Notes: a model not told the origin generated them from the letters alone. Shown: positions 12,821 through 60,807, counted from the first letter of the stretch. The stretch is 64,000 bases of DNA from Candidatus Latescibacterota bacterium (GCA_963667175.2 CAXXXF010000002.1:302195-366194); one strand, 5' to 3'. Made by a program: numbers and translations.

Positions 12821-13279
12821 CTACTCCTCCCCGTCGTAATAGTCCGCGTCGGTCATGCGCCCGAGTTTGCCCGGCGGCCGGATGGCCCATTTGTCCGAAT
12901 CGGGATAATAGCAGGGGTCGCACACGGGATTGTCGGCAATCACGTAGTAGATCAGGTCCTCGTCTTCACTCGGATTGCGGACGTGGTGCGCGGTCCCCGG
13001 CGGTTGAACGAACACGTCATCGGCCTTGACCTCGAACGTGCGGTCGTTCCGCCTGACGACGCCGCGGCCGCTGACCACGATGTAGAATTCCCACTGAACC
13101 TGGTGCGCGTGGTAGGGAAAATTGGTCATCCCCGGCTTCAAGCGCACCCAGTCGATTTCGAACGGCCGGTCCCCGGTTTCGAGCGATCCGGACACGTCCT
13201 TTCGCGACACCTGGAACGTCCCTTTGGGGGAGTGGTGGGATCGTTCTTCGATTTCCGCCAGGTTGATCTTTTCTTTCAT
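12821..13279 (-). CDS. Cupin domain protein
   Basis: PYHAHQVQWEFYIVVSGRG and PGTAHHVRN motifs, plus YYPDSDKW and YYDGE at the C-terminus. Confidence 0.85.
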   Translation of the reverse strand: MKEKINLAEIEERSHHSPKGTFQVSRKDVSGSLETGDRPFEIDWVRLKPGMTNFPYHAHQVQWEFYIVVSGRGVVRRNDRTFEVKADDVFVQPPGTAHHVRNPSEDEDLIYYVIADNPVCDPCYYPDSDKWAIRPPGKLGRMTDADYYDGEE

Positions 13280-45149: not shown

Positions 45150-46274
45150 TCATCGACGTTTCCTGGCATACGCCAGGATGCCGTTTACCAACCGATCCGC
45201 GTCACGCTCCCGATGCTTATGGTACCGGATCTGATAAGCGTCGCTCTTATAGTGGACGTTGTAGACCTCGACCAGAATCTCCGCGTGGGCCAGATTGTTC
45301 CGCAACACCGCAAGGTTCCGCCCCTGAATCCGCGCCGGAAGGTCCCGCCGGTGCAGGGCCGAACGCATGACGCGGGCGAATGACCTGGACCGGCTGTCAA
45401 CCCTGCCACGCCGTTTATGATAGATCGCCAGGGGGCCCCTGGATCGTCCGGGAGTGTTGTCCGCGTGCACCGAGACAAACAGGCTCCTGCCCCCGCGCGC
45501 CCGCCTGACGAAGCGGTTCGCCACCCGGACGCGCTGTGAGATATTGGCGCTCCTGGGGCGTACCTTCTCCGAATTCCTCCGGTTGTACCGTTCATTGTTA
45601 TAGACTTCGTTCCTTTCGTGGACAAATGTAATTTTGGCTTCCTGGTTTTCCCGAATCAGATGATTGGGGCTGATCACCGTGAGTGTCACCTCCGCGCCCA
45701 GGAGCCGGAGTTTCTTGTACATCCGCAGCGCAATGTCGTACACGTATTCGTCTTCGACCACGTAAACCCGTCGTTCCTTGCCCGTCAAATTGGAAACGAT
45801 CGCGCCCGGATCGATGCCGCCGTGCCCCGGGTCGAGCACGATCCACCAGCCCTTCAGCGGTTTCTTCCTTCGCTTGGGCGCCTTGGCGAGAATCTCGTTG
45901 TCGAAGGCGCGCAGAAGGGTCTGGGCCCGGCGAAAATCGACACTGGGTGCGGAGCGCGCTCTCTCGTAGTAGCTGCGATGCCTTTGCCTCGATGCCCTTG
46001 GCTTTCGCCAGTAGTACGGGCCGTTCGGCGCGTCGTATTTGACGATCCGCGCGCCCAGGCGCAGCACCTGGCCCGGATAGACATTATTGGTGCGCAGCTT
46101 GTTGATTCTCTTGATCTCCCCGATGCTTGTCCCGTTCTTCTTTGCAATGGACCAGAGAGAGTCCCCTTTCCGGACCATGTAGACCAGCGATAGCCCGGCA
46201 AGTGGGCTTGCGAACAAGAAGACAACACAGAGTGCGGCACTGAGCAGGCGCAAATGGCGACAGTTTTTCATCAT
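45150..46274 (-). CDS. LysM-domain N-acetylmuramoyl-L-alanine amidase (Amidase_3)
   Basis: Signal peptide, LysM (YMVRKGDSLWSIAKK), LDPGHGGIDPGA, SVHAD and ILVE motifs; highly basic. Confidence 0.85.
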   Translation of the reverse strand: MMKNCRHLRLLSAALCVVFLFASPLAGLSLVYMVRKGDSLWSIAKKNGTSIGEIKRINKLRTNNVYPGQVLRLGARIVKYDAPNGPYYWRKPRASRQRHRSYYERARSAPSVDFRRAQTLLRAFDNEILAKAPKRRKKPLKGWWIVLDPGHGGIDPGAIVSNLTGKERRVYVVEDEYVYDIALRMYKKLRLLGAEVTLTVISPNHLIRENQEAKITFVHERNEVYNNERYNRRNSEKVRPRSANISQRVRVANRFVRRARGGRSLFVSVHADNTPGRSRGPLAIYHKRRGRVDSRSRSFARVMRSALHRRDLPARIQGRNLAVLRNNLAHAEILVEVYNVHYKSDAYQIRYHKHRERDADRLVNGILAYARKRR

Positions 46275-46417
46275 TATGGTCTAACTCGGAAACTCGAATG
46301 AAACGGCGACCGCACCGGTCGGTTTCTGCCGGCAGAATACCTCAGATATTACGCCATTTGTCCCCAAAAGACAAGTCGGCTCCGTTCATGATCAGGCATT
46401 TAACGGCCGTTCGATCC

Positions 46418-46554
46418 GGTCGTTTTCGCCTTGCGTACGGCGATTTTCACCAACATCTATAGGTGACGTGATTTTGAGGATTTGTCTAAATCCTGTAAAT
46501 ACCGATATTTAACAGCGGCGTCATCTTCTCCGTCAAACGGGTACGATACTTGCA
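46418..46554 (+). promoter_or_regulatory. Sigma54 promoter of pspA with tandem PspF-type upstream activating sites
   Basis: GGTACGATACTTGC (GG 46540-41, N10, GC 46552-53); GGTCGTTTTCGCC (46418) and GGCGATTTTCACCAA (46439) start 21 bp apart. Confidence 0.7.
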
Positions 46555-46646
46555 AGGAATGTCGGCAGGACCCTGAATAATTACAGGAAATCGGATTTTT
46601 CCACCCTTGTGGGGTCAAGAAGCCCACAATAGAAAGGAGAAAGACA

Positions 46647-47324
46647 GTGGCCAAAGGAATCTTCTCCCGCATGGCGGACATCGTCAAGGCCAACATCAAC
46701 GATCTTCTGAATCGCGCCGAAGATCCGGAAAAGATGATTCGGCAGATGATCCTCGAAATGGAAGAGGCCGTCAACAAGGCGACCGCGTCCGTCGGCACGG
46801 CCGTTGCCAACGAAAAACGCCTCGAGCGTCAATTGCTGGAGAAGACGGACCAGATCGAGTCCTGGCAGAAAAAGGCCGAATTGGCCGTCGAATCCGGCGA
46901 AGACGACCTGGCCCGGCGCGCCCTGGAACGAAAGGCGGCCTTTGAAAAAGCCGCCCGGGATCTGGAAGCCGCTTTCGACGAGAGCCACAAGACCTCCGAT
47001 CAGCTCAAGAAGCAATTGACGCAGCTCAAGTCCAAACTGGATGAGGCGCGCGCCCGCCAGGGCGCGCTCATCGCCCGGCGCCGCGCAGCCCAGGCGAGAA
47101 AGCAGATCGCCCAGGGTCTCTCCGGCATCGGCGATGACGCGTTTTCGAGCTTCGAGCGCTTCCGGAATCGGGTCGAGACCGAAGAAGCAGAGGCCCATGC
47201 GCACGCCGAAATCGCGGAGGGCGATCCTTCGCTCGAAGACTCGCTGGAAAAGCTGGAACGAAGGAACACCGTGGAAGAGGAACTCGAGGCCCTGAAAAAC
47301 AAGCTGCGGAAAACCGATGCGTGA
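46647..47324 (+). CDS. pspA: Phage shock protein A (PspA/IM30 family)
   Basis: GIFSRMADIVKANINDLLNRAEDPEKMIRQMILEME, WQKKAELAV...DDLARRAL, FERF and EEELEALK motifs; strong RBS. Confidence 0.95.
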   Translation: MAKGIFSRMADIVKANINDLLNRAEDPEKMIRQMILEMEEAVNKATASVGTAVANEKRLERQLLEKTDQIESWQKKAELAVESGEDDLARRALERKAAFEKAARDLEAAFDESHKTSDQLKKQLTQLKSKLDEARARQGALIARRRAAQARKQIAQGLSGIGDDAFSSFERFRNRVETEEAEAHAHAEIAEGDPSLEDSLEKLERRNTVEEELEALKNKLRKTDA

Positions 47325-47946
47325 ATGGCGAAGAATCCTGGACGAAATCGCTTATGAAATTGAAAAGGCGATTCGCGACGTCACAGCGGCCTGGCGCAAT
47401 ATGGGGGAAGACCGACCGATGCGGCAGAACGCACGGACGGATCGTCACCCGAGGTCGCGTCGGCCGGCTTTCCGATTCTCCGACCTGGCCACTGACGGGA
47501 GCTGCGCCATGCGAAATGCCCTCGGACACTTCCTGAATGCCGCCGCGGTGTTTTTTGTCTTCACCGCGATTTTTCCCTTCGTCATGGGCATTGTCGAACG
47601 GTCATACCACCCGGAGGCGCTGCTGTTTATCGTGTGTCTGGCCGGCGCTGTCGTCTTCAGGCTTGCCGGGCGAAAGGCGCACGAATCGGCCGACATGAAG
47701 CGATATGCGCAATACCAGCATCGCCTGCTCAGGCTCGCACGCGAAAAGAGGGGTAGCCTTACCGTTCTGGAAGCCGCGACCGATGGGAGAATGACCGTGG
47801 AGAAGGCTGGCGAGATCCTGCGCGCGTTGAACGAAAAGGGCAGCGCCGAAGTGCGCGTATCCGAATCCGGCCTCGTCGTGTACCACTTTCCTGAAATCGA
47901 ACGCGGTGCGGAGAAGCACGGGGCAAAACCGGTGGATGAACTTTGA
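47317..47946 (+). CDS. Hypothetical membrane protein (2 TM plus C-terminal winged-helix-like region)
   Basis: Overlaps the pspA stop; two hydrophobic segments; LLRLAREKRGSLTVLEAA...VSESGLVVYHFPE. Confidence 0.7.
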   Translation: MREWRRILDEIAYEIEKAIRDVTAAWRNMGEDRPMRQNARTDRHPRSRRPAFRFSDLATDGSCAMRNALGHFLNAAAVFFVFTAIFPFVMGIVERSYHPEALLFIVCLAGAVVFRLAGRKAHESADMKRYAQYQHRLLRLAREKRGSLTVLEAATDGRMTVEKAGEILRALNEKGSAEVRVSESGLVVYHFPEIERGAEKHGAKPVDEL

Positions 47947-47973
47947 TAGCTTTAATTTACACGGAGGGACGTC

Positions 47974-48189
47974 ATGTTTGAAGTCGGTATCGGCATTGCG
48001 CTGATCGTCCTCGCCACGGCGGTCCACAAATACGTGGAACGGCAAACGAAGGGTTCCGTCCCCGGAAAAGTCGAGGAGCGGCTGAACGCCCGGCTGGACG
48101 ATCTGGACCGGCGACTTACCGATATCCAGGAAATCATGATCGCGATCGACGAAAAGCTGGATCGAGGGAACACGAAGGAAACGTCGTAA
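47974..48189 (+). CDS. PspB-like small membrane protein
   Basis: GGAGG RBS; N-terminal TM followed by a coiled coil (RLDDLDRRLTDIQEIM), the PspB architecture; position downstream of pspA. Confidence 0.6.
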   Translation: MFEVGIGIALIVLATAVHKYVERQTKGSVPGKVEERLNARLDDLDRRLTDIQEIMIAIDEKLDRGNTKETS

Positions 48190-48306
48190 GGGACGGTGGA
48201 AGGCCGCTGGATACGTTAAATTAACTGCCACGTTGTCGCGACGCTGTGTTTACGTTTACGTCCGGTGGACTGAAGCATTTAACCAGGAACCATGAAAGGA
48301 TAACCC

Positions 48307-48483
48307 ATGTTCGCGAAGATTCTCGGCATCGTTCTCATCGCCATCGGCGCATATCTTGGAATTCCCGAAGTGATCGGGCTGTTCGGCGCGTCTCTGGAAA
48401 TCCTGTTCCTGCTCCTGAAATTGTCAGTCTCGGTCGTGTTGATTTACGTGGGTTACCGGCTGTTTGCAAGTGACGCCGTATAA
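48307..48483 (+). CDS. 58-aa two-TM membrane protein (below the ORF-track cutoff)
   Basis: GAAAGGA RBS; MFAKILGIVLIAIGAYLGIPEVIGLFGASLEILFLLLKLSVSVVLIYVGYRLFASDAV*. Confidence 0.7.
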   Translation: MFAKILGIVLIAIGAYLGIPEVIGLFGASLEILFLLLKLSVSVVLIYVGYRLFASDAV

Positions 48484-48514
48484 TTGACCAGCATTTCGAA
48501 AGGGAATCCCATCA

Positions 48515-49090
48515 ATGGAAAACGAACGGTATCTCGTCCGGAAGGCAGTCGCGGGAGACGCGGCTGCCTTCGGAGACCTTTACAAAGCCTGCCACGAACA
48601 GATCTACGCCACGATGGTTCGAAGAACGAGCGATCCCGATACCGCGGAGGATCTGATGCAGACCGCCTTTCTGCGGGCATTTATGGCCCTGGGATCGTAC
48701 CGCGGGGAGGCAGCCTTTGCCAAGTGGCTCACACGGATCGCACTCAACGTACACAAGTCCCATTTTCGCAAACAGCAGGTGCGGCGAAAGTGGATTCAAA
48801 CCACGGAGGATCCGGCTGCTCTTGTCGACGCCACGCGCCGGCCGGAACCGGGCGAGAATCCTGAACTCTCAGTCCAGCGAAACGAGCACCGCGACCTGGT
48901 CAGGAAGAGCATTCGGTCATTGCCGGCCAGATATCGCGAGGTACTCTGGATGCGTTACGTGGGAGACCGGTCCTACGAGGAGATTACCAGGGAGTTGCAG
49001 CTTCCGATGGGCACGGTCAAGACCTGGCTCAACCGTGGAAGATTTCAATTGAAGGGTGAATTCAGGAAGCGGGGGCTGGTTCCCTCCTGA
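48515..49090 (+). CDS. ECF RNA polymerase sigma factor (SigW/RpoE-like)
   Basis: GDAAAFGDLY, AEDLMQTAFLRA, FAKWLTRIALN, LPARYRE, SYEEI and PMGTVKTWLNRGR motifs. Confidence 0.92.
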   Translation: MENERYLVRKAVAGDAAAFGDLYKACHEQIYATMVRRTSDPDTAEDLMQTAFLRAFMALGSYRGEAAFAKWLTRIALNVHKSHFRKQQVRRKWIQTTEDPAALVDATRRPEPGENPELSVQRNEHRDLVRKSIRSLPARYREVLWMRYVGDRSYEEITRELQLPMGTVKTWLNRGRFQLKGEFRKRGLVPS

Positions 49091-49329
49091 GCAAGCGGAT
49101 TCCCAGTCCCCAAAGCGCAAGTTCGAGGACAGGATTCGCCGCGATCGGATTCCGCTCGGAGTCGCCCCGGGATTCGACCGCAATGACCGCCGGCATAGAA
49201 CGCCGGAGAAAACCGTCTCGAATATGGTTTGACGCGAAATACATCCTATGTCACGTTTCGCAGCACGGCGGCGTCTCGTGCAATCAAGCGGCGTGCAACA
49301 CGACGACGATCCCGGGAAAGGAGCCGGAC

Positions 49330-49935
49330 ATGGACGGATGGTGGACGGATTTGAGCGTCCTCAACCAGGTGTTCTACCTGTTGGCGGTTTTCTTCAGCGC
49401 GTTTTTCGTCTGGCAACTCCTGGCGGCCCTGTTTGGCATGGGCGGGTCCGACGTCGGCATTGGCGGCGACGCGGACCTTGGCGACGCGGGTCCCGAATTG
49501 AACGACGGACCCGGCGATGGCACGGTGGCTGCATTCAAACTGTTGTCTATCAGGTCTCTGATCGCCTTTGGCATGCTGTTCGGATGGGCGGGCGCCCTGT
49601 ATCTGCATAGAGGTCTGGACGTTCGGACCGCGATGTTTTACGCGTTTATCTGGGGTAGTGCAGGCATGGGGGTCGTGGCCTATTTCTTCCACGGTATCCG
49701 AAAGCTCACCGAGACTGGAAACGCCAGCCTGGATACGTGCGTGGGAACCTCGGGCGAGGTATATCTGAACATCCCCGAGGGCGGGACCGGTCAGGTTCGG
49801 GTGATAGAGAGCGGCGCGGTTGCCTACGTATCGGCTCGCGGCACGAACGGCATGTCCATCTCCGCGAAGACGCCGGTTCGGATTCTTCGCGTGGTGGATG
49901 CGACAACGCTCGAGGTCGAGCCGGAGTCGTGCTGA
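49330..49935 (+). CDS. NfeD-like membrane protein (flotillin partner)
   Basis: TM segments with a D/G-rich loop and C-terminal OB-fold (GEVYLNIP...GQVRV); directly upstream of a flotillin. Confidence 0.75.
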   Translation: MDGWWTDLSVLNQVFYLLAVFFSAFFVWQLLAALFGMGGSDVGIGGDADLGDAGPELNDGPGDGTVAAFKLLSIRSLIAFGMLFGWAGALYLHRGLDVRTAMFYAFIWGSAGMGVVAYFFHGIRKLTETGNASLDTCVGTSGEVYLNIPEGGTGQVRVIESGAVAYVSARGTNGMSISAKTPVRILRVVDATTLEVEPESC

Positions 49936-50092
49936 TTGCAATACGTTCGACTGGCCGGCGCCTGCGGTAGGTTTTTCATGCTGTCTCCTCCTGTCGATGG
50001 ATGAGACAGAAAGGGGGTTGCAGCCCGCACGGCGCCCCTTCAGGGACAGAACCGCAACAGAGGTGATCAATTCCATTCGAGGAGGGATCGTC

Positions 50093-51598
50093 ATGTCAAC
50101 CGAGACGATACTGACAATTATATCGCTGCTGGTGGTGTTTCTGCTCTTCGTGACGTTTATTTCCAGGTACAAGCGGTGCCCGTCCAACAAGATTCTGGTC
50201 GTCTACGGAAAAACCGGAAAAGGAGCTGCAAAGTGCGTTCATGGGGGCGCGGCCTTCGTGCTCCCGCTCCTGCAGGATTATGAGTATCTGGATCTCGAGC
50301 CGTTCGTTGTGCCCATCGATCTGGATAACGCCCTGTCGCAGGAGAACATCCGGGTGTCGGTACCTACAACCGTCACGGCGGCGGTGTCAAATCAGATGGG
50401 CGTGATGCAGAATGCGTCGATTCGCCTCCTGGGGCTCTCTCGAGACCAGATCGAGAGTCAGGCGCAGGACATCATCCTCGGCCAGATGCGGGCGGTGATC
50501 GCCACGATGGAAATCGAGGAAATCAACCAGGACCGGCAGGCGTTTATGTCCAAAGTCAATGAGGCGGTCTCAACCGAAATGGAGAAGATCGGCCTGGCAG
50601 TGATTAACGTGAACATCAAGGACATAGAAGACGAAAGCGGTTATATCAAGGCTCTCGGGCAAAAGGCCGCAGCGGAAGCCATCAACCAGGCGGCAATCGA
50701 CGTGGCCGAGCAGGAGAAGATGGGCAAGGTGGGCGTAGCCGAACGGGAGCGGGACCAGCGCACCGACGTGGCCGCCGCGAACGCGGCCGCCGAAATTGGC
50801 GAGGCCGAAGCTGCCAGGGATCGCCGCCAGAGGGTTGCCGCCCTGGAATCCGAAGCCCAGATCGGCGAGGCCGAAGCCACCAGAAACAAACGCCGGATGG
50901 TCTCTTCTCTGGATGCGGAGGCGGTCCAGGCGGAGGCCGACGCCGAATCGAAAAAGGCCGGCTATATGGCACAACAGACCGTGGCCGAGGAGGTCGCGCG
51001 GCAGAAGGGTCAGGAGGCCGCGAAGGCGGCGGACGGCGCGATCCGGGTCGCTCAGGAAAAAGCCGAAAAGGAGGCCGAGGAGGCCCGGGCGTTGCGGGAA
51101 GAGGCGCGATTGAGAGCCGAAATTGTCGTACAGGCCGACGCGGAAAAGCAGAAGCTGGTCGTACAGGCGGAGGCCGAGAAAGAGCAGAGGACGCTCGTAG
51201 CACAGGGGGAGGCCGCCGCCATCCTCGCCCAGAGGCGAGCCGAAGCAGAGGGTACCCAGGCCATACTGGACGCCAAGGCCGAGGGTTACAGGGAGTTGGT
51301 CGCCGCGTGCGGAGGTAAAGACCAGGCTGCGGCAGCCTTCCTCATCGTCGAGCGGCTGACCGAGGTCGCAGGCATTCAGGCAGAAGCCATTCAGAATCTC
51401 CCCCTGGAGAAGATCATGGTCTGGGACGGCGGCGGCGGACAGGGGGGCATGTCCAATCTCGGCCAGCGCCTGATGGGCGCCATCCCGCCAATGCACGAGC
51501 TGGCCAAACTGGCGGGCCTGGAACTGCCCGAGTTTCTGGGCAAAGCCACAGGCGACGCAAATACAGACGTCGACGACGCGGGCGCATCGGAATCTTAG
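50093..51598 (+). CDS. Flotillin family SPFH protein
   Basis: RYKRCPSNKILVVYG, GGAAFVLP, ALSQENIRV, IEEINQDR and an AE-rich coiled coil; GGAGG RBS. Confidence 0.9.
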   Translation: MSTETILTIISLLVVFLLFVTFISRYKRCPSNKILVVYGKTGKGAAKCVHGGAAFVLPLLQDYEYLDLEPFVVPIDLDNALSQENIRVSVPTTVTAAVSNQMGVMQNASIRLLGLSRDQIESQAQDIILGQMRAVIATMEIEEINQDRQAFMSKVNEAVSTEMEKIGLAVINVNIKDIEDESGYIKALGQKAAAEAINQAAIDVAEQEKMGKVGVAERERDQRTDVAAANAAAEIGEAEAARDRRQRVAALESEAQIGEAEATRNKRRMVSSLDAEAVQAEADAESKKAGYMAQQTVAEEVARQKGQEAAKAADGAIRVAQEKAEKEAEEARALREEARLRAEIVVQADAEKQKLVVQAEAEKEQRTLVAQGEAAAILAQRRAEAEGTQAILDAKAEGYRELVAACGGKDQAAAAFLIVERLTEVAGIQAEAIQNLPLEKIMVWDGGGGQGGMSNLGQRLMGAIPPMHELAKLAGLELPEFLGKATGDANTDVDDAGASES

Positions 51599-51620
51599 CG
51601 CTTCATTCGGGAGCCGTGGC

Positions 51621-53249
51621 TTGAACAGACCCGAAAAATCGGAGAGCCGCCCCGCGGCCGCCAACCGTATCGGCATCGCACAAACCCTGCCGGAATCGGC
51701 GAACGAAGAAGCCAGGCGACGCGGTCGTGACGGCGATAGCGCGATGGAGGCGGGAGACCTGTCGAAAGCCGAGGCCGCCTACATGGCGGCCCTGGCGGCC
51801 GATGACGGGAATGTGCGGGCGCGCCACAACCTGGGCGTTGTCTACTTCAGGCAGGACAACTGGCAGGACGCAATGGACTGCTTCACGCGTTGCCAGGAAC
51901 TTGCGCCCGAGAACGGTGCGGACCTGCACTACAAGATCGGTCTCTGCCGTTTGAAGGCAGGCGTCGACGGAGCGTCGCAGGCCTTCGAAACTGCAATCGC
52001 AACGAATCCGGACCATCTGGAGGCGCAGTTGCAGTTGGCGCTTCTGCGGGCCGAAGGCGCGGGCTCGGGATCGAATGGCAGGCAGCGGGCGGTTGAAGCG
52101 CTTCGGTCTATACTTGAGGCCGTGGACCGTGACGTGCCCTTCGACAACGTGGACCGCGCCTGTTTCCTGTTGGCCAGCTTTCTCGACGACCTTCCGGAAA
52201 ACGTCGACGAAGCGATCACGGTATACCGTCGCGGGCTCGAAGCGAATCCGCTGTTCGCCCCGGGTCATAACAACCTCGGCGTTTTGCTCATGCAGACGGG
52301 TCAGACCCTCCAGGCCCTGGGCGCGTTCAAGATCGCCATTCAGCTCGAGCCGGACTATGCGCTGCCCTACAGGAATCTGGCGCATCTTCTCTTCGATCAC
52401 ATGAGCTCGGCCCAGATGGAACGGGAGTACACGTCCATCATCGAAGAATTCGGCACGCAGGCAGCCGCGGTGCTGGCGCGCCTGTCCCTTGAACTCATCG
52501 ACATGGGACGCGGACAGGTGGGAGAGAGCCTGTACACCCGGGGTCACCAGATCAAGAACCTGATGGGTCTGGTGGGGAGCCGAACCAGGCGGCTAATTCG
52601 AAGGATCCCGCAGGAGGACGCCCTTCTCGACGACCTGCGAGACATCGCCCGCGATCAGGAGCACATCTTCGACCAGTGGGTGGCCTATCTGCGCAGCATG
52701 AAGCAGGATCCGTTGAATCCCTCGCTGGTGGATATTCCGCAGTTCGTGAGCAAAATCAAAGAGGCCGTTGCCACCCGCACCGGAGGCGCGGCGCTCCGTT
52801 TCGCGTCCGAACCGCAGGTCCCGCAGGTCAAGGTCGATCCCGGCATGCTGCGGGAAGCCGTCACGAACCTGATTCTCAACGCGCTGGAAGCCGTTGAGGA
52901 AAACGGAGCGATCACCGTACAGGCCGGCCACGACAATAGACGAGGGTCGGTATTCATCGAGGTGGAAGACGACGGACCGGGCATTTCCGAAGAGATCAAG
53001 GCCAGGATCTTCGATCCCGGGTTTTCCACCAAGGAAAAAGGCAATGGCTTCGGGCTGAGCATCTGTTCGCGCATCGTCTCCGCTCACAGGGGAACCCTGC
53101 GGATGATCAGCCGTCCGGGCGCCGGCGCCGTGTTCCGCATCGATCTTCCGGTGGACTTCGAGCTCGTTTCCGAAACCGAAAGCATCGGTTGGAGCGGCGA
53201 TCCACTGTCCGCCTCGAAGCTGTCCCTGGCCGAGGAATTCATCGAGTAG
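51621..53249 (+). CDS. Soluble TPR-repeat sensor histidine kinase
   Basis: TPRs (ARHNLGVVY, HNNLGVLL, YRNLAHL); H-box HQIKN, NLILNALEA, DDGPGI, IFDPGFSTK and GNGFGL; no TM segment seen. Confidence 0.88.
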   Translation: MNRPEKSESRPAAANRIGIAQTLPESANEEARRRGRDGDSAMEAGDLSKAEAAYMAALAADDGNVRARHNLGVVYFRQDNWQDAMDCFTRCQELAPENGADLHYKIGLCRLKAGVDGASQAFETAIATNPDHLEAQLQLALLRAEGAGSGSNGRQRAVEALRSILEAVDRDVPFDNVDRACFLLASFLDDLPENVDEAITVYRRGLEANPLFAPGHNNLGVLLMQTGQTLQALGAFKIAIQLEPDYALPYRNLAHLLFDHMSSAQMEREYTSIIEEFGTQAAAVLARLSLELIDMGRGQVGESLYTRGHQIKNLMGLVGSRTRRLIRRIPQEDALLDDLRDIARDQEHIFDQWVAYLRSMKQDPLNPSLVDIPQFVSKIKEAVATRTGGAALRFASEPQVPQVKVDPGMLREAVTNLILNALEAVEENGAITVQAGHDNRRGSVFIEVEDDGPGISEEIKARIFDPGFSTKEKGNGFGLSICSRIVSAHRGTLRMISRPGAGAVFRIDLPVDFELVSETESIGWSGDPLSASKLSLAEEFIE

Positions 53250-53252
53250 TCT

Positions 53253-54659
53253 ATGAAAGCGCAAATCGTCGTTGCCGACGACCAGCCCGAAATCCTGGAG
53301 ATGCTGAGGCGAAGCCTTCAGGTGGATGGCCGGACCGTGAGGACTTTTCCAACGGGCAGAAAGGCGTTTGCATACCTGCGAGAGCACGTTTCGGACGTGG
53401 ATATGGCCGTTCTGGATATCGACTTCGGTCCCACCGAGCCGGACGGTCTGGAAATTCTGAGAAAGATTCGCGACCTCGTGCCGGATTTGCCGGTGATCAT
53501 TCTCACGGGGAAAGGCACCGTGGAGAACGCCGTGGCTGCCCTGCGCATGGGCGCTTCCGACTTTATCGAGAAGGATACCTATATTGAAGACCGGCTTGAA
53601 CTCAGCCTTGAAAAACTCGACCGCGTTCTCGCCGTCCTCAGGGAGAACGCCCGGCTTCAGGCGCGGGTGAAGGATCTGGACCGGGAGAACCGCTACTACC
53701 GGGACGAATTCGGAAAGAAGTACAGGACCGTCAATGCCAGCCCCCAGATGCTGCGGATCATGCGGCAGGCCGAGCGCATTGCTTCGATACCACGGCCGGT
53801 TCTGGTACTCGGCGAACCCGGCACCGGGAAGGAGCTTGTGGCCGCCGCGATTCACTACGGCGGCGTACGCGGCAATCGACCGTTCGTTAAGGTCAATTGC
53901 GCGGCCCTTTCCGCCAACCTGCTGGAAAGCGAACTCTTCGGCCACGAGAAAGGCGCGTTCACCGGAGCGACCGAAGCCCGACCAGGACGGTTTGAAGCGG
54001 CCAACGGCGGTACGCTGTTGCTGGACGAGATCGGCAACACCACACCCGAATTCCAGCAGAACGTCCTTCGCGCCATCGAGTACCAGGAGATTCAACGGGT
54101 GGGCGGGGCCGCGCCCACCAGCGTGGACGTCCGGATCATCGCCGCCACGAATGCCGATCTCGAACGTGAGATTGCCGAAGGCCGCTTTCGCCGGGATCTC
54201 TACGACCGCCTCCGCTTCGAAGTGATCCGCATTCCCCCGCTTCGCGAACGGCGTGAAGACGTCCAGCCGCTTGCCGCGTTCTTCGTCGAGCAAATCGTCC
54301 GGGAGGTGCCGGGACTCACCTTGCGTCCGTTTTCCGACGGCGCCCTCCGACACCTGCAGGGCTACCCGTGGCCCGGAAACGTGCGCGAGCTCAAGTTCGC
54401 CGTCGAACGCGCGGCGATCATGGCCACGGGCGCATCCATCGAATCCCAGGATTTGCCGCCGGAAATCACCAGCGGAGATCCGGCGCCGCCGGGAGACGGG
54501 TTCGACGCTCAGGTCAAAGCCTTTGAGCTCGGGCTGCTCAGAACCGCACTGGGCAACGCGAACTGGAACCAGCGCAAGGCAGCCGAATCGCTCAGTCTGA
54601 GCTACGACCAGTTCCGCCACTTCTACAGGAAGTATGAACTTGCCAATGAAAGAACCTGA
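53253..54659 (+). CDS. Sigma54-dependent activator: receiver domain plus PspF-like AAA+ and HTH
   Basis: REC (ADD, VLD, LTG, EK), GEPGTGKE and GAFTGA; PspF-like [19 protein letters not shown] and [18 protein letters not shown]. Confidence 0.9.
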
Positions 54660-54761
54660 CGTTCGTTATTGTCATAAGGAGCCCCTGGCGCGGCTTCGCT
54701 GTGCTCAGCCGCAACGAAAAAAGGTGGAGGTGAACGTCTGAGCCCGTTGGACGGCGCAATC

Positions 54762-54820
54762 ACTCCCCCCTTGAGGGGGAGTCGCCTGCCTGCGCCAAGC
54801 GGAGCGCGGCAGGCAGGCAG
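54762..54820. repeat. REP-like palindromic elements
   Basis: ACTCCCCCCTTGAGGGGGAGT and CCTGCCTGC...GCAGGCAGG inverted repeats; the latter resembles the core of the MITE. Confidence 0.55.
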
Positions 54821-54966
54821 AAGCCGAGCCGTCAGGCGACGGCTTATGCGGTGGGGGGATTCCAACGCGTGAACGTGAGCAAGAAGCACGAATAAATATG
54901 CACGCATTTTGCGAAGAAGCCTTACCGGAAGATGCTAAGGGAGGGCATGGATTTGACTATTTTCAC

Positions 54967-54994
54967 TTGACGCAGATCATGAATCCGGTATATT
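54967..54994 (+). promoter_or_regulatory. Putative sigma70 promoter
   Basis: TTGACG-N16-TATATT upstream of the 55146 gene. Confidence 0.4.
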
Positions 54995-55145
54995 TGGATC
55001 GAACCTCGCGCTTTGATGCTTATTGCATCTATTCCGGTCCCGGATCTTCTCCGGGAATCCTGCGGGTTCACAATCGGAACGGGACAACACCGCCCGGCTC
55101 GATTGCTCTTCAAGGAAACGGTTTGCCGCTTACGAGGAAACAACA

Positions 55146-56936
55146 ATGAGCGAAGCCGAAAACGGCCCTTGCGGCCTGATTTTCCCCTCAGACGATTCGG
55201 AAGTTTCCCACGTAGAACTGTGCCTTGCGGACGCTGGTTTTTCCAGTGAAGTTCGGGCATGGCTGGTTCAGATATTTGAACGCCAGGACTGTTTTGGCGA
55301 TTCCGGCGGCGCGTCCGTGTTCAGGGACGATTTCGCGCACCTTTTCGAGCACGTCCTTCCCGGTGTCGTGGAAGGGCTGAACGAACCGGATCCATCGGAG
55401 CACCTCGCACAGACCCGCCTCGCGCTCCTCTTCAGTTTTCTGCTTGGCTTCGGACCCGTCTACAGCGAAGGGGTTCGGCCTGGCCGTGGGCTGGTGAAAT
55501 CAGGTGAAGACTGGGTTGTTCCCGCGTGGGTTGGCGCGTTTCAAAGGCAGGCGAAATTTCGAGCACAACGCCTGGATTGGCGCAAGCTCGTGGAGATAAG
55601 AAACGCGCGCGCTTTCCTGTTCTTCGACCTCGTTCCATTTCTCTTTCCCGAAGGCCTGCCGCTGGATCAGATCGTCAATCCGGCCTTGTTGAATCCGATA
55701 CCGCGAGAGGAGTGGTCCAGTACGGATTTTGAAGACCCCGATCAGCTCGAATTCTGGCTCAAATGGCGTTTCGCCGCAGACTCGGAACGTCGTGAGATCA
55801 TAAACCTGAACACCCTGGAAGCGGCGTTTTCCGATTTTGCGGAGGATGTTCTGGGCGACCGGATTCTCGGACTCCTGAATGCGATCGAATGTGCGATGAG
55901 CATTGGATTTGCGTCGGCTTCGGAACGTCTGAATCCTTCGGGTGACGGGTGGCGGGTGGTTTCGCGTGAACTAATCCCGTACCTGGACCTTCTGAGTGAG
56001 AAACGGCCCGAGTCCGGGTCAGAGCGATCTTCGTTGCTCAAAGCCTGGTGGCGGTTGTCGGCGGCGATTTACTACAGGGGTATGGGTGGGCTGGAACCGG
56101 ATCTCTCCGACGAACTGAGAAACCGGCTTGTGGACAGCGCCGCCAGGCACGTCGGCATGCTGCGGAAGGTGTTGCGAGAGACGCCTGAGGAATTTACGGG
56201 AAGGGATTCGACGGGCGCGCCGGTTGCGGATTTCTACGAAAGAGCCTTTGAGGCGCTGATCGTTTTCGCCGCGCCCTGGAAATGCTTGAGGTCCCTCCTG
56301 CTGGCTTTCGCGGAGATGCGGGTTCCCGCCGTTGCATCGGACCTTCGGCCGTGGCCCGATGCTGACAGAGAACCTCCGCCGCATCCCTACAGTCGAATCC
56401 CGACGTGGATCGGAATCGCCATGTATCCGCAGCATCTTCGGGATGAACTCAGACGGGACCCGCACTTGAAGGGATTGCGTGAAGCATTTGCCAAATTCTG
56501 CCTCGAACGGCTCAAGACCCGGAGAACCGATGCTGAGCCGACCAGACAAACGGACCATCCCGCGGACGAACGATTCGTCGAACCCCGCCGAGCGTGGAGA
56601 CAGTGCTACGTGCAGGCGCTGGCGGCATTGCGAGTCAATCCCGGCGGGCGGGCGCACAGAACGCTGTTCTGGCTTTCCAGGAACGATCCTGATGAAACGA
56701 TCCGAACACTCGCGAGAAGGGCGCACGGCCGGATTCGTCATCTCAGTCCCGACAGGCCAAATCGGAATCGGGGCGCCTCGCCTCGTCGAGCCCTGTTCGA
56801 AGCCTTCTGGTGGCTCCGCCAGGCGCATCTCCTGACACTTGGAATAGAGATCGACCAGGCGGGCGCCATGCGAACGCGAAGAACGGAATTGCATCGGACA
56901 CGAGAGAAGCGTGATCGCCTCGATGGGCAGGCGTAG
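55146..56936 (+). CDS. Large hypothetical alpha-helical protein upstream of the viperin unit
   Basis: GAGGA RBS before ATG 55146; 596 codons; HEAT-like C-terminal segment (LSRNDPDETIRTLA); no catalytic motif recognised. Confidence 0.75.
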   Translation: MSEAENGPCGLIFPSDDSEVSHVELCLADAGFSSEVRAWLVQIFERQDCFGDSGGASVFRDDFAHLFEHVLPGVVEGLNEPDPSEHLAQTRLALLFSFLLGFGPVYSEGVRPGRGLVKSGEDWVVPAWVGAFQRQAKFRAQRLDWRKLVEIRNARAFLFFDLVPFLFPEGLPLDQIVNPALLNPIPREEWSSTDFEDPDQLEFWLKWRFAADSERREIINLNTLEAAFSDFAEDVLGDRILGLLNAIECAMSIGFASASERLNPSGDGWRVVSRELIPYLDLLSEKRPESGSERSSLLKAWWRLSAAIYYRGMGGLEPDLSDELRNRLVDSAARHVGMLRKVLRETPEEFTGRDSTGAPVADFYERAFEALIVFAAPWKCLRSLLLAFAEMRVPAVASDLRPWPDADREPPPHPYSRIPTWIGIAMYPQHLRDELRRDPHLKGLREAFAKFCLERLKTRRTDAEPTRQTDHPADERFVEPRRAWRQCYVQALAALRVNPGGRAHRTLFWLSRNDPDETIRTLARRAHGRIRHLSPDRPNRNRGASPRRALFEAFWWLRQAHLLTLGIEIDQAGAMRTRRTELHRTREKRDRLDGQA

Positions 56937-57066
56937 TTGACCAACGACAACACTTTAGATGGCAAATTACACCAAGTACAAGGAAGTGGCCGGTGTATTC
57001 ATTTCCATAAGATAATTATTATAAATGACTTAATTGAAATACAGAAGTATTGGCATAATTCTTGCA
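56930..57066 (+). promoter_or_regulatory. Sigma54 promoter with PspF-type upstream sites and an IHF-like site, in front of the small gene/viperin
   Basis: TTGGCATAATTCTTGCA (GG 57052-53, N10, GC 57064-65); GGCGTAGTTGACCAA (56930) and GGCAAATTACACCAA (56961); TATAAATGACTTA (57020) is one mismatch from the IHF consensus. Confidence 0.72.
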
Positions 57067-57172
57067 TTTAATGGATGGAGATTCCGTAGAGTAACCCGGT
57101 CTGCTCATCAATTGGGAACCAAAGTGTCCCCCAGGGCCGGCCCGATTCCACGAGAAAGGAGGTGAAAAGAAA

Positions 57173-57355
57173 ATGGCCAAATCAAGCGGGAATAGAGGCT
57201 CGCAAGCCGATCGTGACAATCGCGCCAATCAGCTGAATCCCAACAACGATGCATATCGGAAGGCGCGCGGCATTGCGAACTTGCCCAGCAAGACCGGAAA
57301 TCCTTCCGGCCGCGGCCGCGGCAATGCCGCGCCCAGGGGAGGTAAGGGCAAATGA
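57173..57355 (+). CDS. 60-aa basic Gly/Asn-rich protein with a DNRANQLNPNNDAY motif
   Basis: Very strong RBS (GAAAGGAGGTGA); MAKSSGNRGSQADRDNRANQLNPNNDAYRKARG...RGGKGK. Confidence 0.75.
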   Translation: MAKSSGNRGSQADRDNRANQLNPNNDAYRKARGIANLPSKTGNPSGRGRGNAAPRGGKGK

Positions 57356-57361
57356 TGTATC

Positions 57362-57430
57362 GGCGCAGGGGCTGGCCATTGCCCGGCACGGACGTTTGCA
57401 ATCGGTCAATCCCTGCCCGCCTTTTCGTTT
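57362..57430 (+). terminator. Long hairpin with U-tract between the small gene and viperin
   Basis: GCAGGG..TGGCCATTGC pairs with GCAAT(C)GGTCA..CCCTGC, followed by TTTTCGTTT. Confidence 0.5.
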
Positions 57431-57564
57431 CGCCAGATGCGTCGCACTTCGAGGCTCAATAGCCTCGCGCCTGATCCCCACCGGATTGTGCTACGACGCA
57501 TCCTTTCAGGACAACCGGAACGGCAACATCGTTCCTTTAATGTCAAATGAGAAAGGAGTTTAAA

Positions 57565-58461
57565 ATGGCCTTCGGCAATTTGCCATCTCCCTTGCAGCAG
57601 AAAATCCCATCAGTCAACTTCCATCTCTGGGAACCATGCAACATGCGTTGCAGGTTCTGTTTTGCTACGTTTCAAGACGTAAAGCGTGATATGAACCTGC
57701 CAAAAGGTCATCTGCCCAAGGATGATTGTATCGTAGTTGTAGAGAAACTTGCCGAAGCGGGCTTTGATAAGATTAATTTCGCCGGTGGAGAACCCACACT
57801 TTGCCCATGGTTGTCTGATTTAATCAGGCGGGCGAAATCTCACGGAATGGTCACTTCCGTCGTTACAAACGGATCGAGGATTACCGATCAGTGGCTGGGC
57901 AGTCTGTATAGGTGTCTTGATTGGATCGCCCTGAGCATTGACACCGTTGACTCGGGTAAATTGAAACGACTGGGGCGTGCAATCGGCGGCAAAGATGCCA
58001 TTTCCCCGGAAGAGTATCTTCGCATTGCCAGCGACGTAAAGCGACGCGGGATTCGGCTGAAAGTCAATACTGTCGTTACTTCCATTACGTGGCTGGACGA
58101 TTTTGCCGACTTTATACGGCTGTTAAAACCCGAACGCTGGAAGATATTTCAGGCACTTCCCGTCAAGGGCCAAAACGACCGGCATATTGCTGATTTCGCG
58201 CTTACAGCAAAGCAATTTGACGCGTACGTTCAACGCAATCGCATCGTCAGGGAGGAGAGCATCCGCGTCGTCCCCGAGAGCAATGAACTGATGACTGAGA
58301 GTTACACAATGGTTGATCCTGCGGGACGATTTTTCGACAACGCAAAGGGCGCCCATTCCTACAGTGACCCCATCCTGGAGGTTGGGATTGACGCGGCCTT
58401 GAAGTCCGTGTCGATCGACCCTGATCGGTTTCTTCGGAGGGGAGGAAAGTATGACTGGTAA
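57565..58461 (+). CDS. Prokaryotic viperin (antiviral radical SAM ddhNTP synthase, pVip)
   Basis: SVNFHLWEPCNMRCRFCFATF (N-Phi-H-X4-CX3CX2CF), KINFAGGEP, VTNGS, WIALSID, KVNTVV, PERWKIFQ..GQND and PESNELMTESYTMVDPAGRF; AAGGAG RBS before ATG 57565. Confidence 0.93.
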   Translation: MAFGNLPSPLQQKIPSVNFHLWEPCNMRCRFCFATFQDVKRDMNLPKGHLPKDDCIVVVEKLAEAGFDKINFAGGEPTLCPWLSDLIRRAKSHGMVTSVVTNGSRITDQWLGSLYRCLDWIALSIDTVDSGKLKRLGRAIGGKDAISPEEYLRIASDVKRRGIRLKVNTVVTSITWLDDFADFIRLLKPERWKIFQALPVKGQNDRHIADFALTAKQFDAYVQRNRIVREESIRVVPESNELMTESYTMVDPAGRFFDNAKGAHSYSDPILEVGIDAALKSVSIDPDRFLRRGGKYDW

Positions 58462-59044
58462 ATTCATCGTCATCTAAAGCCCTGATGCAGTCGGCAAATC
58501 TACCCTAGCGCGCGAATTGGCCAATCGGCTTGGCGCGGAGCTGCTCGAATGCCCTCCACGGTTGGAGGCCCCCGGGTTATTGGGGGCGGAGCTGCGGAGT
58601 CATTTCGACAAACGACCTGCCGAACAGCGGCGCGCTTACTACCGGGCGGCGAATCTCGTCGCTAGTGAAATTGCCGAAGGTACACTGCAGGAGAAGCATG
58701 TCGTGATGGACCGTTATTGGCCGAGTACGGTTGCTTTCGCCACAATGGACGTTGACTCAAACGGTTACCGGAAATGGCAGGGTCTTTATCCGCCGGAACT
58801 CCGCAAGCCGGATGCAGTTGTCCTGCTTACGGTAGATGAGGAGAATCGTTCGAAGAGGATGCGGAAGCGCGGTGAACCTGCCACGACCGAGGAGCAGTCC
58901 CTCGACGAACACCTTGCACACCGCAATAACATACTTTGCGCGTACCGCAAATTCAACCCGATCGAGATCGATACGAGCAATCGCAAGCCTGGTGACGTCC
59001 GTGAAGCTACCCTCGATGAACTTCGCAGTGCAAGGTTGTTTTAA
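58451..59044 (+). pseudogene. CMPK2-like/thymidylate-kinase-family nucleotide kinase with an in-frame TAA at codon 9
   Basis: From ATG 58451 it reads MTGKFIVI*SPDAVGKSTLARELANR, in frame with ORF 58517-59044 (RRAYYRAAN, VVMDRYWPST, ELRKPDAVVLLTV..ENRSKRMRKRG). Confidence 0.8.
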
Positions 59045-59060
59045 CTGAACTCCCATCTCC

Positions 59061-59091
59061 AACGCCCCCGGCGATGTTCGCCGGGGGCGTT
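59061..59091. terminator. Perfect GC-rich hairpin after the kinase
   Basis: AACGCCCCCGGCGA-tgt-TCGCCGGGGGCGTT. Confidence 0.6.
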
Positions 59092-59140
59092 GGTCGGGCG
59101 GGGTTCACCAGCATCTCCCAATCGCTACCGCATAATCTTC

Positions 59141-59220
59141 GTAGGGGCAACCCTTGTGGTTGCCCTGGTTAATGCGTACGCCCACGGACGCCGATGCGGG
59201 CGGGACGCCCGCGCTCCCAG
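59141..59220. repeat. REP-like elements (GTAG-type and GCGGGCGGGACGCCCGC-type)
   Basis: GTAGGGGCAACCCTTGTGGTTGCCCT and GCGGGCGGGACGCCCGCGCTCCCAG palindromes. Confidence 0.6.
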
Positions 59221-59488
59221 GGGAGCGACGCGGCGAATGGCCGGTGGCTGGAAGGAAAGCGTCAATAAACGACGGCGAGACGCCCTGACGACGTTTGTCG
59301 GGGCGTTCGTTTTTTTTGATTCGAAGAATCCACAAACAAGATGGTTTCGGCAGTACGGGTATTGCGTTATATTGTGGTCGTCTGAATTCAACGAAGAAAC
59401 CAGGCTGCGATTCGTTTTCCACCTGGATCTGATAAAGGCATCGAAGACCGCGTGCAGCGCGTGGTCGGGCGAGCGGTATGGACCAGAT

Positions 59489-59830
59489 ATGTTCAAGGAA
59501 CTGGACGTAATCGCGCTTACAGCCGAAGTTCCACTCGATCACATTTGGGATGTCCCGGACACCAGCCCGCTGATTGAGAAACGCAATCCGGGGGACGGGC
59601 TGAAAGTCGGCGACGTCGGCACGATTGTATGTATCCAGGGCAACGGGGAAGCCCTCGAAGTCGAATTTCTGGGTCCGGACGGCAACACGATGGCTATTGC
59701 CACGATTTCGCCATCACAGGCCCGACTGGCCACGGAAGAAGATCTCACGAAGCGATCTCTTCTGAAGGAAGTCGGCAGTCCGGCCTTATCACGGCCTCAT
59801 GAAAGAATGGGAAAGAAAGAGCCACTGTGA
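59489..59830 (+). CDS. DUF4926-like domain protein
   Basis: MFKELDVIALT...GLKVGDVGTIV...EALEVEFLGPDGNT pattern. Confidence 0.7.
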   Translation: MFKELDVIALTAEVPLDHIWDVPDTSPLIEKRNPGDGLKVGDVGTIVCIQGNGEALEVEFLGPDGNTMAIATISPSQARLATEEDLTKRSLLKEVGSPALSRPHERMGKKEPL

Positions 59831-59994
59831 GGATCGTGAATTCATCGCGCCCGCCAGGTTGCGGTTCGTCCTGGCGTTCGGTGTGTTGAGCGATAATGCG
59901 AGACTGCCAACCCGTCATGGGAATTCCCGTGGACAGTCTCTACCGGCGGGTTTCTGCGTTCTAGATACGTGAATCCGGTTGCAGGGGAGGTGCT

Positions 59995-60807
59995 ATGAAC
60001 GTTGCCGTATTCGGCGCGGCAGGCTGGCTCGGGCGGGCGGCGCTGGCCGCTCTGGACGAGAACCATCGAATCCGGGCGTTCGACTACGGTCCTCCGGCCT
60101 GGCAAGCCTGGAACGATACCGACGGTGAATGGACGGGCGGCGAGGTCGTTCATGGCGATATCGTGGAATTTGAACCCGTCCACCGCGCCGTTGAGGGAAT
60201 GGACGCGGTCCTGCACATGGCGGTGTACCATTCGGACGAACCCGGCGCCCACGGCGTCGACGACAGGAAGCCCTTCCTCATCAACGTGAAGGGCCTCTGG
60301 AACGTGCTGGAATCCGCCCGCCGGCACGGCATCGGGCGGATCGTGCACATCGGCTCCTGTCAGACCGCCCACCCGAAAGGGATCTTCTTCACGGCCGACG
60401 TCAGGCGGCCCGACGGCGGCCTCTACGGCGTCACGAAACGTCTTCAGGAAGAAATGTGCCGGCAGTTCCACGACGCGTTCGGTCTCCGCATTATCGTACT
60501 CCGGCCGGACTACATCGTCGACAGCAGACTCGGCATCGGCCGGTACAGGGAAAGACTGGGTACCGAAGAGCGCCCCTACCGACAGGGCTGGGTCTGCCGG
60601 CACGACCTTGCGGAGGCTTGCCGCCTGAGCCTGGAATCCGAAACCATCGATTTCGACGTTTTCCACGTCGTGGGGACACCCGGCGCCGAGAGGACCTGCA
60701 ACGTCGCACGGTCCCGAGATATCCTCGGCCTTGAATACCGGGGAAATCTGGAACAGTACCGAACCGGCGACGACGTGGAAAAGAGAGACAGCCACGATCT
60801 GAAATAA
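59995..60807 (+). CDS. NAD-dependent epimerase/dehydratase family protein
   Basis: GAAGWLG, DAVLHMA, INVKGLWNVLE and YGVTK (YxxxK) motifs. Confidence 0.88.
   Translation: MNVAVFGAAGWLGRAALAALDENHRIRAFDYGPPAWQAWNDTDGEWTGGEVVHGDIVEFEPVHRAVEGMDAVLHMAVYHSDEPGAHGVDDRKPFLINVKGLWNVLESARRHGIGRIVHIGSCQTAHPKGIFFTADVRRPDGGLYGVTKRLQEEMCRQFHDAFGLRIIVLRPDYIVDSRLGIGRYRERLGTEERPYRQGWVCRHDLAEACRLSLESETIDFDVFHVVGTPGAERTCNVARSRDILGLEYRGNLEQYRTGDDVEKRDSHDLK

Follow-up and report, generated by a model that had tools for sequence, protein, structure and literature searches.

We analysed in silico a window of 64,000 nucleotides (CAXXXF010000002.1:302195-366194, assembly GCA_963667175.2) from a Candidatus Latescibacterota bacterium, an uncultured sponge-associated organism with a genome of 5.52 Mb and 59.5% G+C. 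The span 46418-59044 of this window holds two units of different origin (Table 1). The first, at 46.4-54.7 kb, is a conserved membrane-stress cluster that encodes, all on the same strand, PspA, three small/membrane proteins, an extracytoplasmic function (ECF) sigma factor, an NfeD-like protein, a flotillin, a histidine kinase with tetratricopeptide repeats (TPR) and a sigma54 activator. Directly downstream lies a mobile defence cassette of ~5.3 kb (~54.66-59.98 kb), composed of the gene unk596, a gene for a 60-aa Gly/Arg/Asn-rich protein (the small gene), a spacer of ~210 nt, and genes for a viperin, a dTMP-kinase-like protein and a DUF4926 protein. A sequence-only reading of this DNA had proposed that pspA and the viperin unit are both under sigma54 control, exerted through paired upstream sites by a PspF-like activator encoded between the two promoters. 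All six motifs that it named, at pspA and at the cassette, are present at their positions, and its spacings are right: 101 and 91 bp from the proximal site to the -24 GG, and 21 and ~31 bp between the sites. Our analysis bears directly on these sequence elements, their conservation, their specificity within the genome and the covariation of a leader RNA that precedes viperin.

Table 1. Features of the membrane-stress cluster and the defence cassette (window coordinates)
Feature	Position	Strand	Sequence	Basis or remark
Distal pspA upstream activator site	46416..46431	.	CCGGTCGTTTTCGCCT (motif GGTCGTTTTCGCC, 46418-46430)	Inverted relative to the proximal site
Proximal pspA upstream activator site	46438..46453	+	CGGCGATTTTCACCAA (motif GGCGATTTTCACCAA, 46439-46453)	Core TGGY-N7-RCCA
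pspA sigma54 -24/-12 element	46539..46554	+	GGGTACGATACTTGCA (motif GGTACGATACTTGC, 46540-46553)	GG-N10-GC
pspA (PspA/IM30 family)	46647..47324	+		PF04012, 165 bits
ECF-type sigma factor within the cluster	48515..49090	+		Sigma70_r2 and r4_2 domains; kept in 16/16 loci
NfeD-like membrane protein	49331-49935	+		Translation; cluster conserved
Flotillin/SPFH protein	~50094-51598	+		Band_7 domain; cluster conserved
Soluble TPR-domain histidine kinase	51621..53249	+		TPR repeats and HATPase_c
NtrC-type sigma54 activator (receiver, AAA+, weak Fis-type helix-turn-helix)	53253..54659	+		Pfam domains
Sigma70-type promoter-like site upstream of unk596	54967..54994	+	TTGACG-16-TATATT	10/12 match
unk596, 596-aa all-alpha protein, first cassette gene	55146..56936	+		No family assigned
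Distal cassette site, similar to an upstream activator site, doubtful	56929..56944	+	AGGCGTAGTTGACCAA (motif GGCGTAGTTGACCAA, 56930-56944)	Overlaps the unk596 stop codon
Proximal cassette upstream activator site	56960..56975	+	TGGCAAATTACACCAA (motif GGCAAATTACACCAA, 56962-56976)	Centre 84 bp before the -24 GG
Cassette sigma54 -24/-12 element	57051..57066	+	TGGCATAATTCTTGCA (motif TTGGCATAATTCTTGCA, 57050-57066)	Intergenic, gene strand, 107 bp before the small gene
Small Gly/Arg/Asn-rich protein, 60 aa	57173..57355	+		Strong ribosome-binding site; relatives at the equivalent position in other cassettes
Structured leader RNA	57436..57557	+		RNAalifold; covariation in 34 instances
Prokaryotic viperin (pVip)	57565..58461	+		NF038283, PADLOC pVip models, CNMRCRFC
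dTMP-kinase-like partner (PDC-M51B-like)	58517..59044	+		PF02223 partial profile; PADLOC PDC-M51B
DUF4926 protein, end of the inserted island	59489..59830	+		PF16277

Results

We compared 16 orthologous neighbourhoods drawn from two families (the same genus and a sister family). The whole membrane-stress cluster is kept in all 16, and alignment of the pspA promoters revealed strong conservation in two upstream blocks. The proximal block fits GGYRNNNTTYRCCAA and the distal one is the same core inverted, so that the two combined give TGGY-N7-RCCA with an A/T-rich centre. Both upstream activator sites (UAS) are conserved in 16 of 16 promoters, with position weight matrix (PWM) scores of 14.4 (distal) and 19.9 (proximal). 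The GG-N10-GC box is likewise found in every locus, with one mismatch in seven, two in seven and three in two, and it is nearer to the consensus in the sister family than in the host's own genus. The distance from the UAS centre to the GG is 93-95 bp in the genus (85 bp in its locus L100) and 82-86 bp in the sister family. Since the box and both upstream blocks are kept throughout, the sequence argues well for an activator-dependent promoter at pspA. The elements stand at the pspA promoter only; gaps within the cluster are 158-325 bp with no convincing terminator, and the pspA operon may or may not reach as far as flotillin. The sequence-only reading had gone further than this in having flotillin co-induced.

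The same reading called the genes correctly, except that it overlooked a receiver domain in the activator. In Pfam the activator matches Response_reg (residues 5-110), Sigma54_activat (161-322) and AAA_lid_14, followed by a weak C-terminal match to the Fis-type HTH_8 (E 0.0016, below the cut-off), and it scores 343 bits against TIGR02974 (pspF), under the cut-off of 443.55. The kinase encoded just upstream has an NtrB/AtoS/ZraS-like C-terminus and no hydrophobic segment (maximum KD19 0.99). By its domain content the activator is an NtrC-type response regulator, predicted to be controlled by phosphorylation and paired with the soluble TPR histidine kinase, and not a PspF-type protein. Every one of 14 same-genus genomes has an orthologue of the activator (88-92% identity), as do all eight sister-family genomes searched (67-69%). 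The three small genes after pspA gave no Pfam match to PspB or PspC, distant forms being possible. The genome has a single rpoN (Sigma54_DBD match, 201.5 bits) and ten full-scoring sigma54 activators.

Sigma54 promoters carry TGGCACG-N4-TTGCW flanks around GG-N10-GC. In the cassette box the GG and GC are exactly 10 nt apart, with two mismatches to the consensus. To score the sites upstream of it we used a PWM built from the pspA footprints only, in a two-family version and in a sister-family version into which no sequence from the host genus entered, and scanned all 5,520,603 positions of the genome. The proximal cassette site ranked second with the two-family PWM and first with the sister-family PWM, ahead of the proximal site of pspA itself (rank 5); the distal cassette site ranked 28 and 744, respectively. 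With the two-family PWM the genome has one such pair, the cassette sites, where 0.004 would be expected. When 2012 sigma54-like boxes genome-wide (up to three mismatches) were ranked by their two best sites 50-220 bp upstream, the cassette scored 35.5 and pspA 34.3, the next box reaching 25.2. The UAS centre lies 84, 80 and 83 bp before the GG in three same-genus cassettes, compared with 82-95 bp at pspA.

The two promoters have no similarity outside these motifs (global alignment -5.5; shuffles -8.1±5.0), so the cassette promoter is not a copy of the pspA promoter, and we rejected the idea of a duplicated promoter. We conclude that, as judged from sequence, the cassette promoter has one strong activator site in common with pspA, plus a doubtful second. 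The paired sites that had been proposed for both promoters hold for pspA and for the proximal cassette site, the distal cassette site being the doubtful one.

The cassette promoter sits in an insert of ~170 bp between unk596 and the small gene, seen only in three same-genus cassettes beside the activator. The longest blocks without change in a three-way alignment of the genus cassettes are the UAS core and ATTGGCATA.TTCTTG. The insert with its UAS and box is absent from 14 of 14 cassettes elsewhere, where the unk596 stop is joined to the leader of the small gene either immediately or through unrelated inserts. Viperin is itself accessory: the 14 same-genus genomes searched give no match better than E 4e-7, and true orthologues (~70% identity) occur in 4 of 31 sister-family genomes. 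In seven of ten loci from the genus, the gene that stands at window position 59995 comes no more than ~35 bp after the activator gene; at one locus a DUF4926 gene is all that lies between the two. At the related loci G009 and G002 a 530-aa beta-CASP-type protein takes the place of viperin and the kinase-like protein, whereas unk596, the same promoter region and small genes are all present.

Elsewhere, nine of 80 pVip loci (Latescibacterota, Poribacteria) have unk596 immediately before viperin. Neither the activator nor PspA was found within 6 kb in any of the 80. A sigma54-like box stands within 700 bp in 1 of 80 (0.9 expected), which puts that box, in locus L003, at chance level; within 1.5 kb the count is 1 of 26. 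We therefore rejected sigma54 control as a general feature of pVips, and the conservation that the sequence-only reading had anticipated upstream of homologous viperin genes was not found. Because the insert is absent elsewhere, other pVip loci are without the activator and PspA, the box is at chance there, and in G009 and G002 the promoter stands before a beta-CASP nuclease, the comparison indicates that the promoter belongs to the cassette slot and not to viperin, the wiring being a local acquisition. The viperin gene (57547-58461) has 50.4% G+C, in a genome of 59.5%, consistent with a foreign origin of the cargo; the promoter insert has ~41%.

We also noted that the final ~24 nt of unk596 occur twice, in diverged form, with one copy on either side of the promoter insert (…GATCGCCTC.AT.GG…; window 56904-56936 and 57098-57131). 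Unrelated inserts occur at the identical point with the same duplication in L008/L009 and L002/L003, and the point may be a recurrent insertion or recombination site.

The spacer before viperin is highly conserved, and RNAalifold predicts for it a three-way junction followed by a helix between an anti-Shine-Dalgarno (anti-SD) strand and the viperin Shine-Dalgarno (SD) sequence. The junction is made of P1 (57438-57444/57494-57500), P2 (57451-57456/57461-57466) and P3 (57473-57477/57483-57487); just 3′ of P1, the anti-SD at 57501-57507 (CCUUUC) pairs with the SD at 57551-57557 (GAAAGG). The window RNA alone folds likewise (minimum free energy -49.2 kcal/mol, z -3.76). A covariance model matched 12 of 101 relatives of the host genome, 13 of 121 relatives of a Poribacteria genome and one true metagenome contig; no instance was found in viral contigs. 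Among three metagenome pattern matches, L110 and L112 lack P1 and any model match and were dismissed as chance. The 34 instances come from Latescibacterota, Poribacteria and a cyanobacterial symbiont. In them 96.4% of cells are paired, and compensatory changes occur in 17 of 29 pairs (shuffles 8.1±1.7, 0 of 500 reaching 17; slid controls 5-7), including 6 of 6 anti-SD:SD pairs, in an alignment fitted to the covariance model, which favours this result. Rfam covariance models gave nothing at E≤1 over 57356-57564. Pab91, the only Rfam match in 46000-60000 (at 59049-59107), was sub-threshold (28.7 vs 71 bits) and was dismissed.

All 34 instances have an open reading frame (ORF) that begins at the 3′ end of the model. 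The cargo is viperin in 18, a beta-CASP/RMMBL nuclease in 10 (Pfam matches for two of the ten, the remainder by similarity), PDC-M51A, a B12-binding radical-SAM protein matched by PADLOC, in five, and in one a 357-aa protein unrelated to the three main types (L131 of G154, from 1644 onward). unk596 lies upstream in 27 of 34 units; another three are second units, from the three cassettes in which RNA and cargo occur twice in tandem, and in the last four unk596 is undetectable or the flank too short. Since the RNA always ends at the ribosome-binding site (RBS) of the cargo and all anti-SD:SD pairs covary, it would control translation of the cargo on one transcript. We are confident that the leader is a real cis-acting structured RNA; that it is a ligand- or protein-responsive infection switch is a tentative suggestion. 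With four cargo types and no Rfam match, it is a previously undescribed candidate RNA switch.

Three further observations concern this region. An inverted repeat of the type AGGTGCTGAC…GTCAACACCT with a variable loop is conserved between the small gene and the leader RNA, in the window (57370-57425) and in other cassettes, and could be a further RNA hairpin or an operator. At 57517-57535 there is a hairpin ahead of TTTAATG. The PDC-M51A-type cargo of L120 (G035) is open for only 336 aa, compared with ~460-470 in its relatives, and is possibly truncated.

The proteins of the cassette differ in how far they can be assigned. Viperin matches NF038283 at 307.6 bits (cut-off 180) and PADLOC pVip at E 5.7e-88, and its translation carries the radical-SAM CxxxCxxC as CNMRCRFC. 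pVips make chain-terminating ddhNTPs against phage; ddhNTP synthesis and phage protection are its predicted role. The kinase-like protein covers positions 50-177 only of the thymidylate kinase profile PF02223, with no Walker A motif (GxxxxGK[ST]) in its first 31 residues. The short form is conserved, as alignments with its relatives start at residue 1, and the partner may be a non-canonical kinase.

For unk596 we found no family in four libraries, with no Pfam, NCBIfam or PADLOC match, and its 400 homologues at E≤1e-5 are none of them named beyond 'hypothetical'. Its AlphaFold 2 model is all-alpha (pLDDT 68.6); Foldseek gave 0 matches against the PDB at E≤0.001 (TM≤0.27), the Atlas neighbours are weak and generic (ARM/HEAT-like, 0.86-0.88), and no function was assigned. 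It represents a sizeable uncharacterised family and is likely a defence component. The 5′ leader of the small gene (…TTGGGAA…AGTGTCCCCC…GAAAGGAGGTGA; window 57108-57172, L094 oriented 12850-12910) is near-invariant across phyla; in G009 it is repeated ahead of a second small gene. The small proteins show two motif types, NQLNPNNDAYW and WPSKTGNPSGGGR.NAPP, and the window protein has both.

Discussion

The above results suggest that the neighbouring NtrC-type activator probably co-controls pspA and the cassette promoter. What stands of the common sigma54 control first proposed is a specific upstream motif in common, an activator and a kinase encoded between the two promoters, and the presence of rpoN; what has changed is that the wiring traces to one event and concerns the cassette slot, not viperin. 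The earlier proposal also missed the translational layer of the leader RNA and possible sigma70 read-through. Binding, induction, the signal and the antiviral outcome are what we infer, as follows. The soluble TPR kinase would sense cytoplasmic or membrane-proximal stress and phosphorylate the activator, which would bind the TGGY-N7-RCCA sites and activate the two promoters, that of pspA and that of the cassette. On top of any sigma70 read-through from the unk596 promoter, the cassette would gain inducible transcription from its sigma54 promoter, and the anti-SD of the leader RNA would hold the viperin RBS closed until a signal opens it.

Several observations weigh against this co-control. The near-consensus sigma54 boxes are present, and that of pspA is conserved, but a box alone is at chance level: with up to two mismatches to TGGCACGNNNNTTGCW the window has 9 matches, compared with 9.27±2.9 in shuffled sequence, and the genome has 300 (6+29+265), both claimed boxes being two-mismatch matches. 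The pair statistic loses significance with the sister-family PWM (5 pair entries vs 3.1 expected), and the distal cassette site is weak, neither G009 nor G002 having kept it. The cassette box is kept in G009, whereas in G002 the -12 GC reads GT; of these related copies, which are close kin, the -24 half is thus kept in two of two and the -12 GC in one. Close kinship of the three insert-bearing cassettes makes them one evolutionary event, and their overall identity of 83% limits the power of footprinting. In addition, unk596 and the small gene have no called terminator between them, the A/T-rich insert may contain a weak sigma70 promoter, and the genome encodes nine other sigma54 activators.

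Some of these observations lend themselves to an account in which the cassette is expressed mainly by sigma70 read-through, which may suffice, or from the weak sigma70 promoter of the insert, and is controlled essentially by the leader RNA, the sigma54 box and UAS being non-functional or marginal. Besides the chance frequency of boxes and the damaged -12 element of G002, this account can point to the 14 cassettes elsewhere that work without the insert, and to the conserved hexamers TTGACG-16-TATATT upstream of unk596, also found in two related cassettes, with no terminator called after the gene. We nevertheless consider it unlikely: a site ranked first or second of 5.5 million, standing 84 bp before a well-oriented intergenic GG-N10-GC, would hardly arise by chance, as the PWM never saw the cassette promoter, and nothing else in the insert is as well kept as the UAS and the box. 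The lack of a called terminator makes read-through itself likely, and the sigma54 promoter would then add induction and not be the sole source of transcript.

The ten full-scoring activators leave room for a real sigma54 promoter that is served by another activator, or by several, with pspA and the cassette not co-regulated. We regard this as very improbable, given that the UAS motif derives from pspA promoters adjoining this activator in 16 of 16 genomes, that genome-wide only pspA and the cassette pair such sites with a sigma54 box, and that the insert occurs only where the cassette adjoins the activator. The sigma54 promoter might also drive the small gene only, with viperin separately transcribed or stabilised and the spacer acting as a processing site, a small RNA or a protein platform and not as a translational switch. 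The ~210 nt between the two genes, with their conserved inverted repeat, structured RNA and the hairpin before TTTAATG, would suit such an arrangement. No sigma70-like promoter was called in the spacer, however, and the constant position of the RNA at the cargo RBS, together with the full covariation of its anti-SD:SD pairs, argues for translational control; we find the arrangement improbable.

The arrangement combines features of several known systems. E. coli pspA has a PspF-activated sigma54 promoter of UAS/IHF architecture and is induced by the filamentous-phage secretin pIV. The present locus resembles it in that a sigma54 promoter, preceded by activator sites with an A/T-rich stretch in between, stands before a PspA/IM30 gene; it differs in the receiver domain and cognate soluble TPR kinase, in that no PspB/PspC was detected, and in a predicted regulon that includes an antiviral cassette. 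In the NtrBC, ZraSR and AtoSC systems, as here, a kinase gene just upstream accompanies a regulator of receiver, AAA+ and helix-turn-helix domains, with dyad-like sites ~80-100 bp before GG-N10-GC. Here, however, NCBIfam matches are below the equivalog cut-offs, the TPR sensor has no membrane segment, and the predicted targets are pspA and a defence cassette. The leader resembles translational riboswitches in its multi-helix junction followed by an anti-SD strand that pairs with a downstream SD, covariation supporting all five helices, and is set apart by the lack of an Rfam family and by serving four unrelated cargo genes in one cassette family.

Viperin itself agrees with known pVips in its matches, its radical-SAM motif and its linked kinase; it departs from those described in its inducible-type promoter, in its leader RNA and in that no Walker A is visible in its kinase-like partner. 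Its kinase-like gene matches PDC-M51B of PDC-M51 (a B12-binding radical-SAM protein with a kinase-like partner), and five cassettes have the RNA before PDC-M51A; in the window the M51B-like protein is paired with viperin, and PDC-M51 is a candidate system only. Linkage of pVips with kinases has been described (10.1101/2023.09.13.557418); the available text of that work contains no occurrence of promoter, riboswitch, inducib or transcription, and its supplementary tables may list neighbourhood genes. The available part of PMC3128695 links membrane stress and phage. As far as their available texts go, oxidative stress has been tied to staphylococcal type III-A CRISPR (PMC12205988) and one regulatory system to defence in pseudomonads (PMC11888443); both resemble the present case in coupling defence expression to stress or global signalling, but they concern other regulators and defence systems, none with sigma54, Psp or viperin. 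A 2025 cross-phylum survey of sigma54 regulons lists phage shock protein A, and its available text has no occurrence of antiviral, CRISPR or restriction. Among the papers that our literature search listed, none connects viperin to sigma54 or to phage shock, none connects enhancer-binding proteins or sigma-54 to anti-phage defence, and none connects a riboswitch or leader RNA to viperin.

How costly or self-harming antiviral enzymes are switched on is known for few systems, and for viperins our search found nothing in print. The locus offers a concrete circuit in which a membrane-guarding two-component sigma54 activator appears to arm a chain-terminator enzyme, echoing the interferon-induced viperin of animals; by this analogy it may represent an induced antiviral state. 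The broader novelty is the RNA-gated, cargo-swapping cassette. A possible, though doubtful, extension is that unk596, the small protein and the RNA make up a portable sensing and gating unit for antiviral effectors, whose RNA is opened by an infection cue and which in one genus has been plugged into the phage-shock two-component pathway, giving two-key control, with envelope stress acting on transcription and the RNA gate on translation. The cue could then be a small molecule that the RNA binds, or the RNA could be acted on by the small protein or by unk596, and the unit would arm viperin, PDC-M51A, the beta-CASP RNase and others.

Other features of the locus

Within the membrane-stress cluster, a 58-aa hydrophobic ORF with a good RBS (48307-48483) lies between the psp genes and the ECF sigma gene and could encode a small Psp-type membrane protein. 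A sigma54-like box at 49518-49533 (TGGCACGGTGGCTGCA) has one mismatch and is a closer match than either claimed box; it is inside the NfeD-like reading frame upstream of flotillin. A counterpart with two mismatches lies at the equivalent place in G009 (L094 oriented 5262). Owing to its position within a reading frame we did not count it with the two claimed promoters; it may reflect chance, coding conservation or at most an internal promoter.

In the cassette, a minus-strand ORF at 56019-56894 was dismissed as an Arg/Pro-rich antisense of unk596. The slot of G009, G002 and L100 likewise closes with a relative of the DUF4926 protein. Between the activator stop and the unk596 promoter there is a G+C-rich stretch of ~245 bp with nested inverted repeats (54687-54933); it is absent from the otherwise collinear G009 locus and so looks like a small repeat element.

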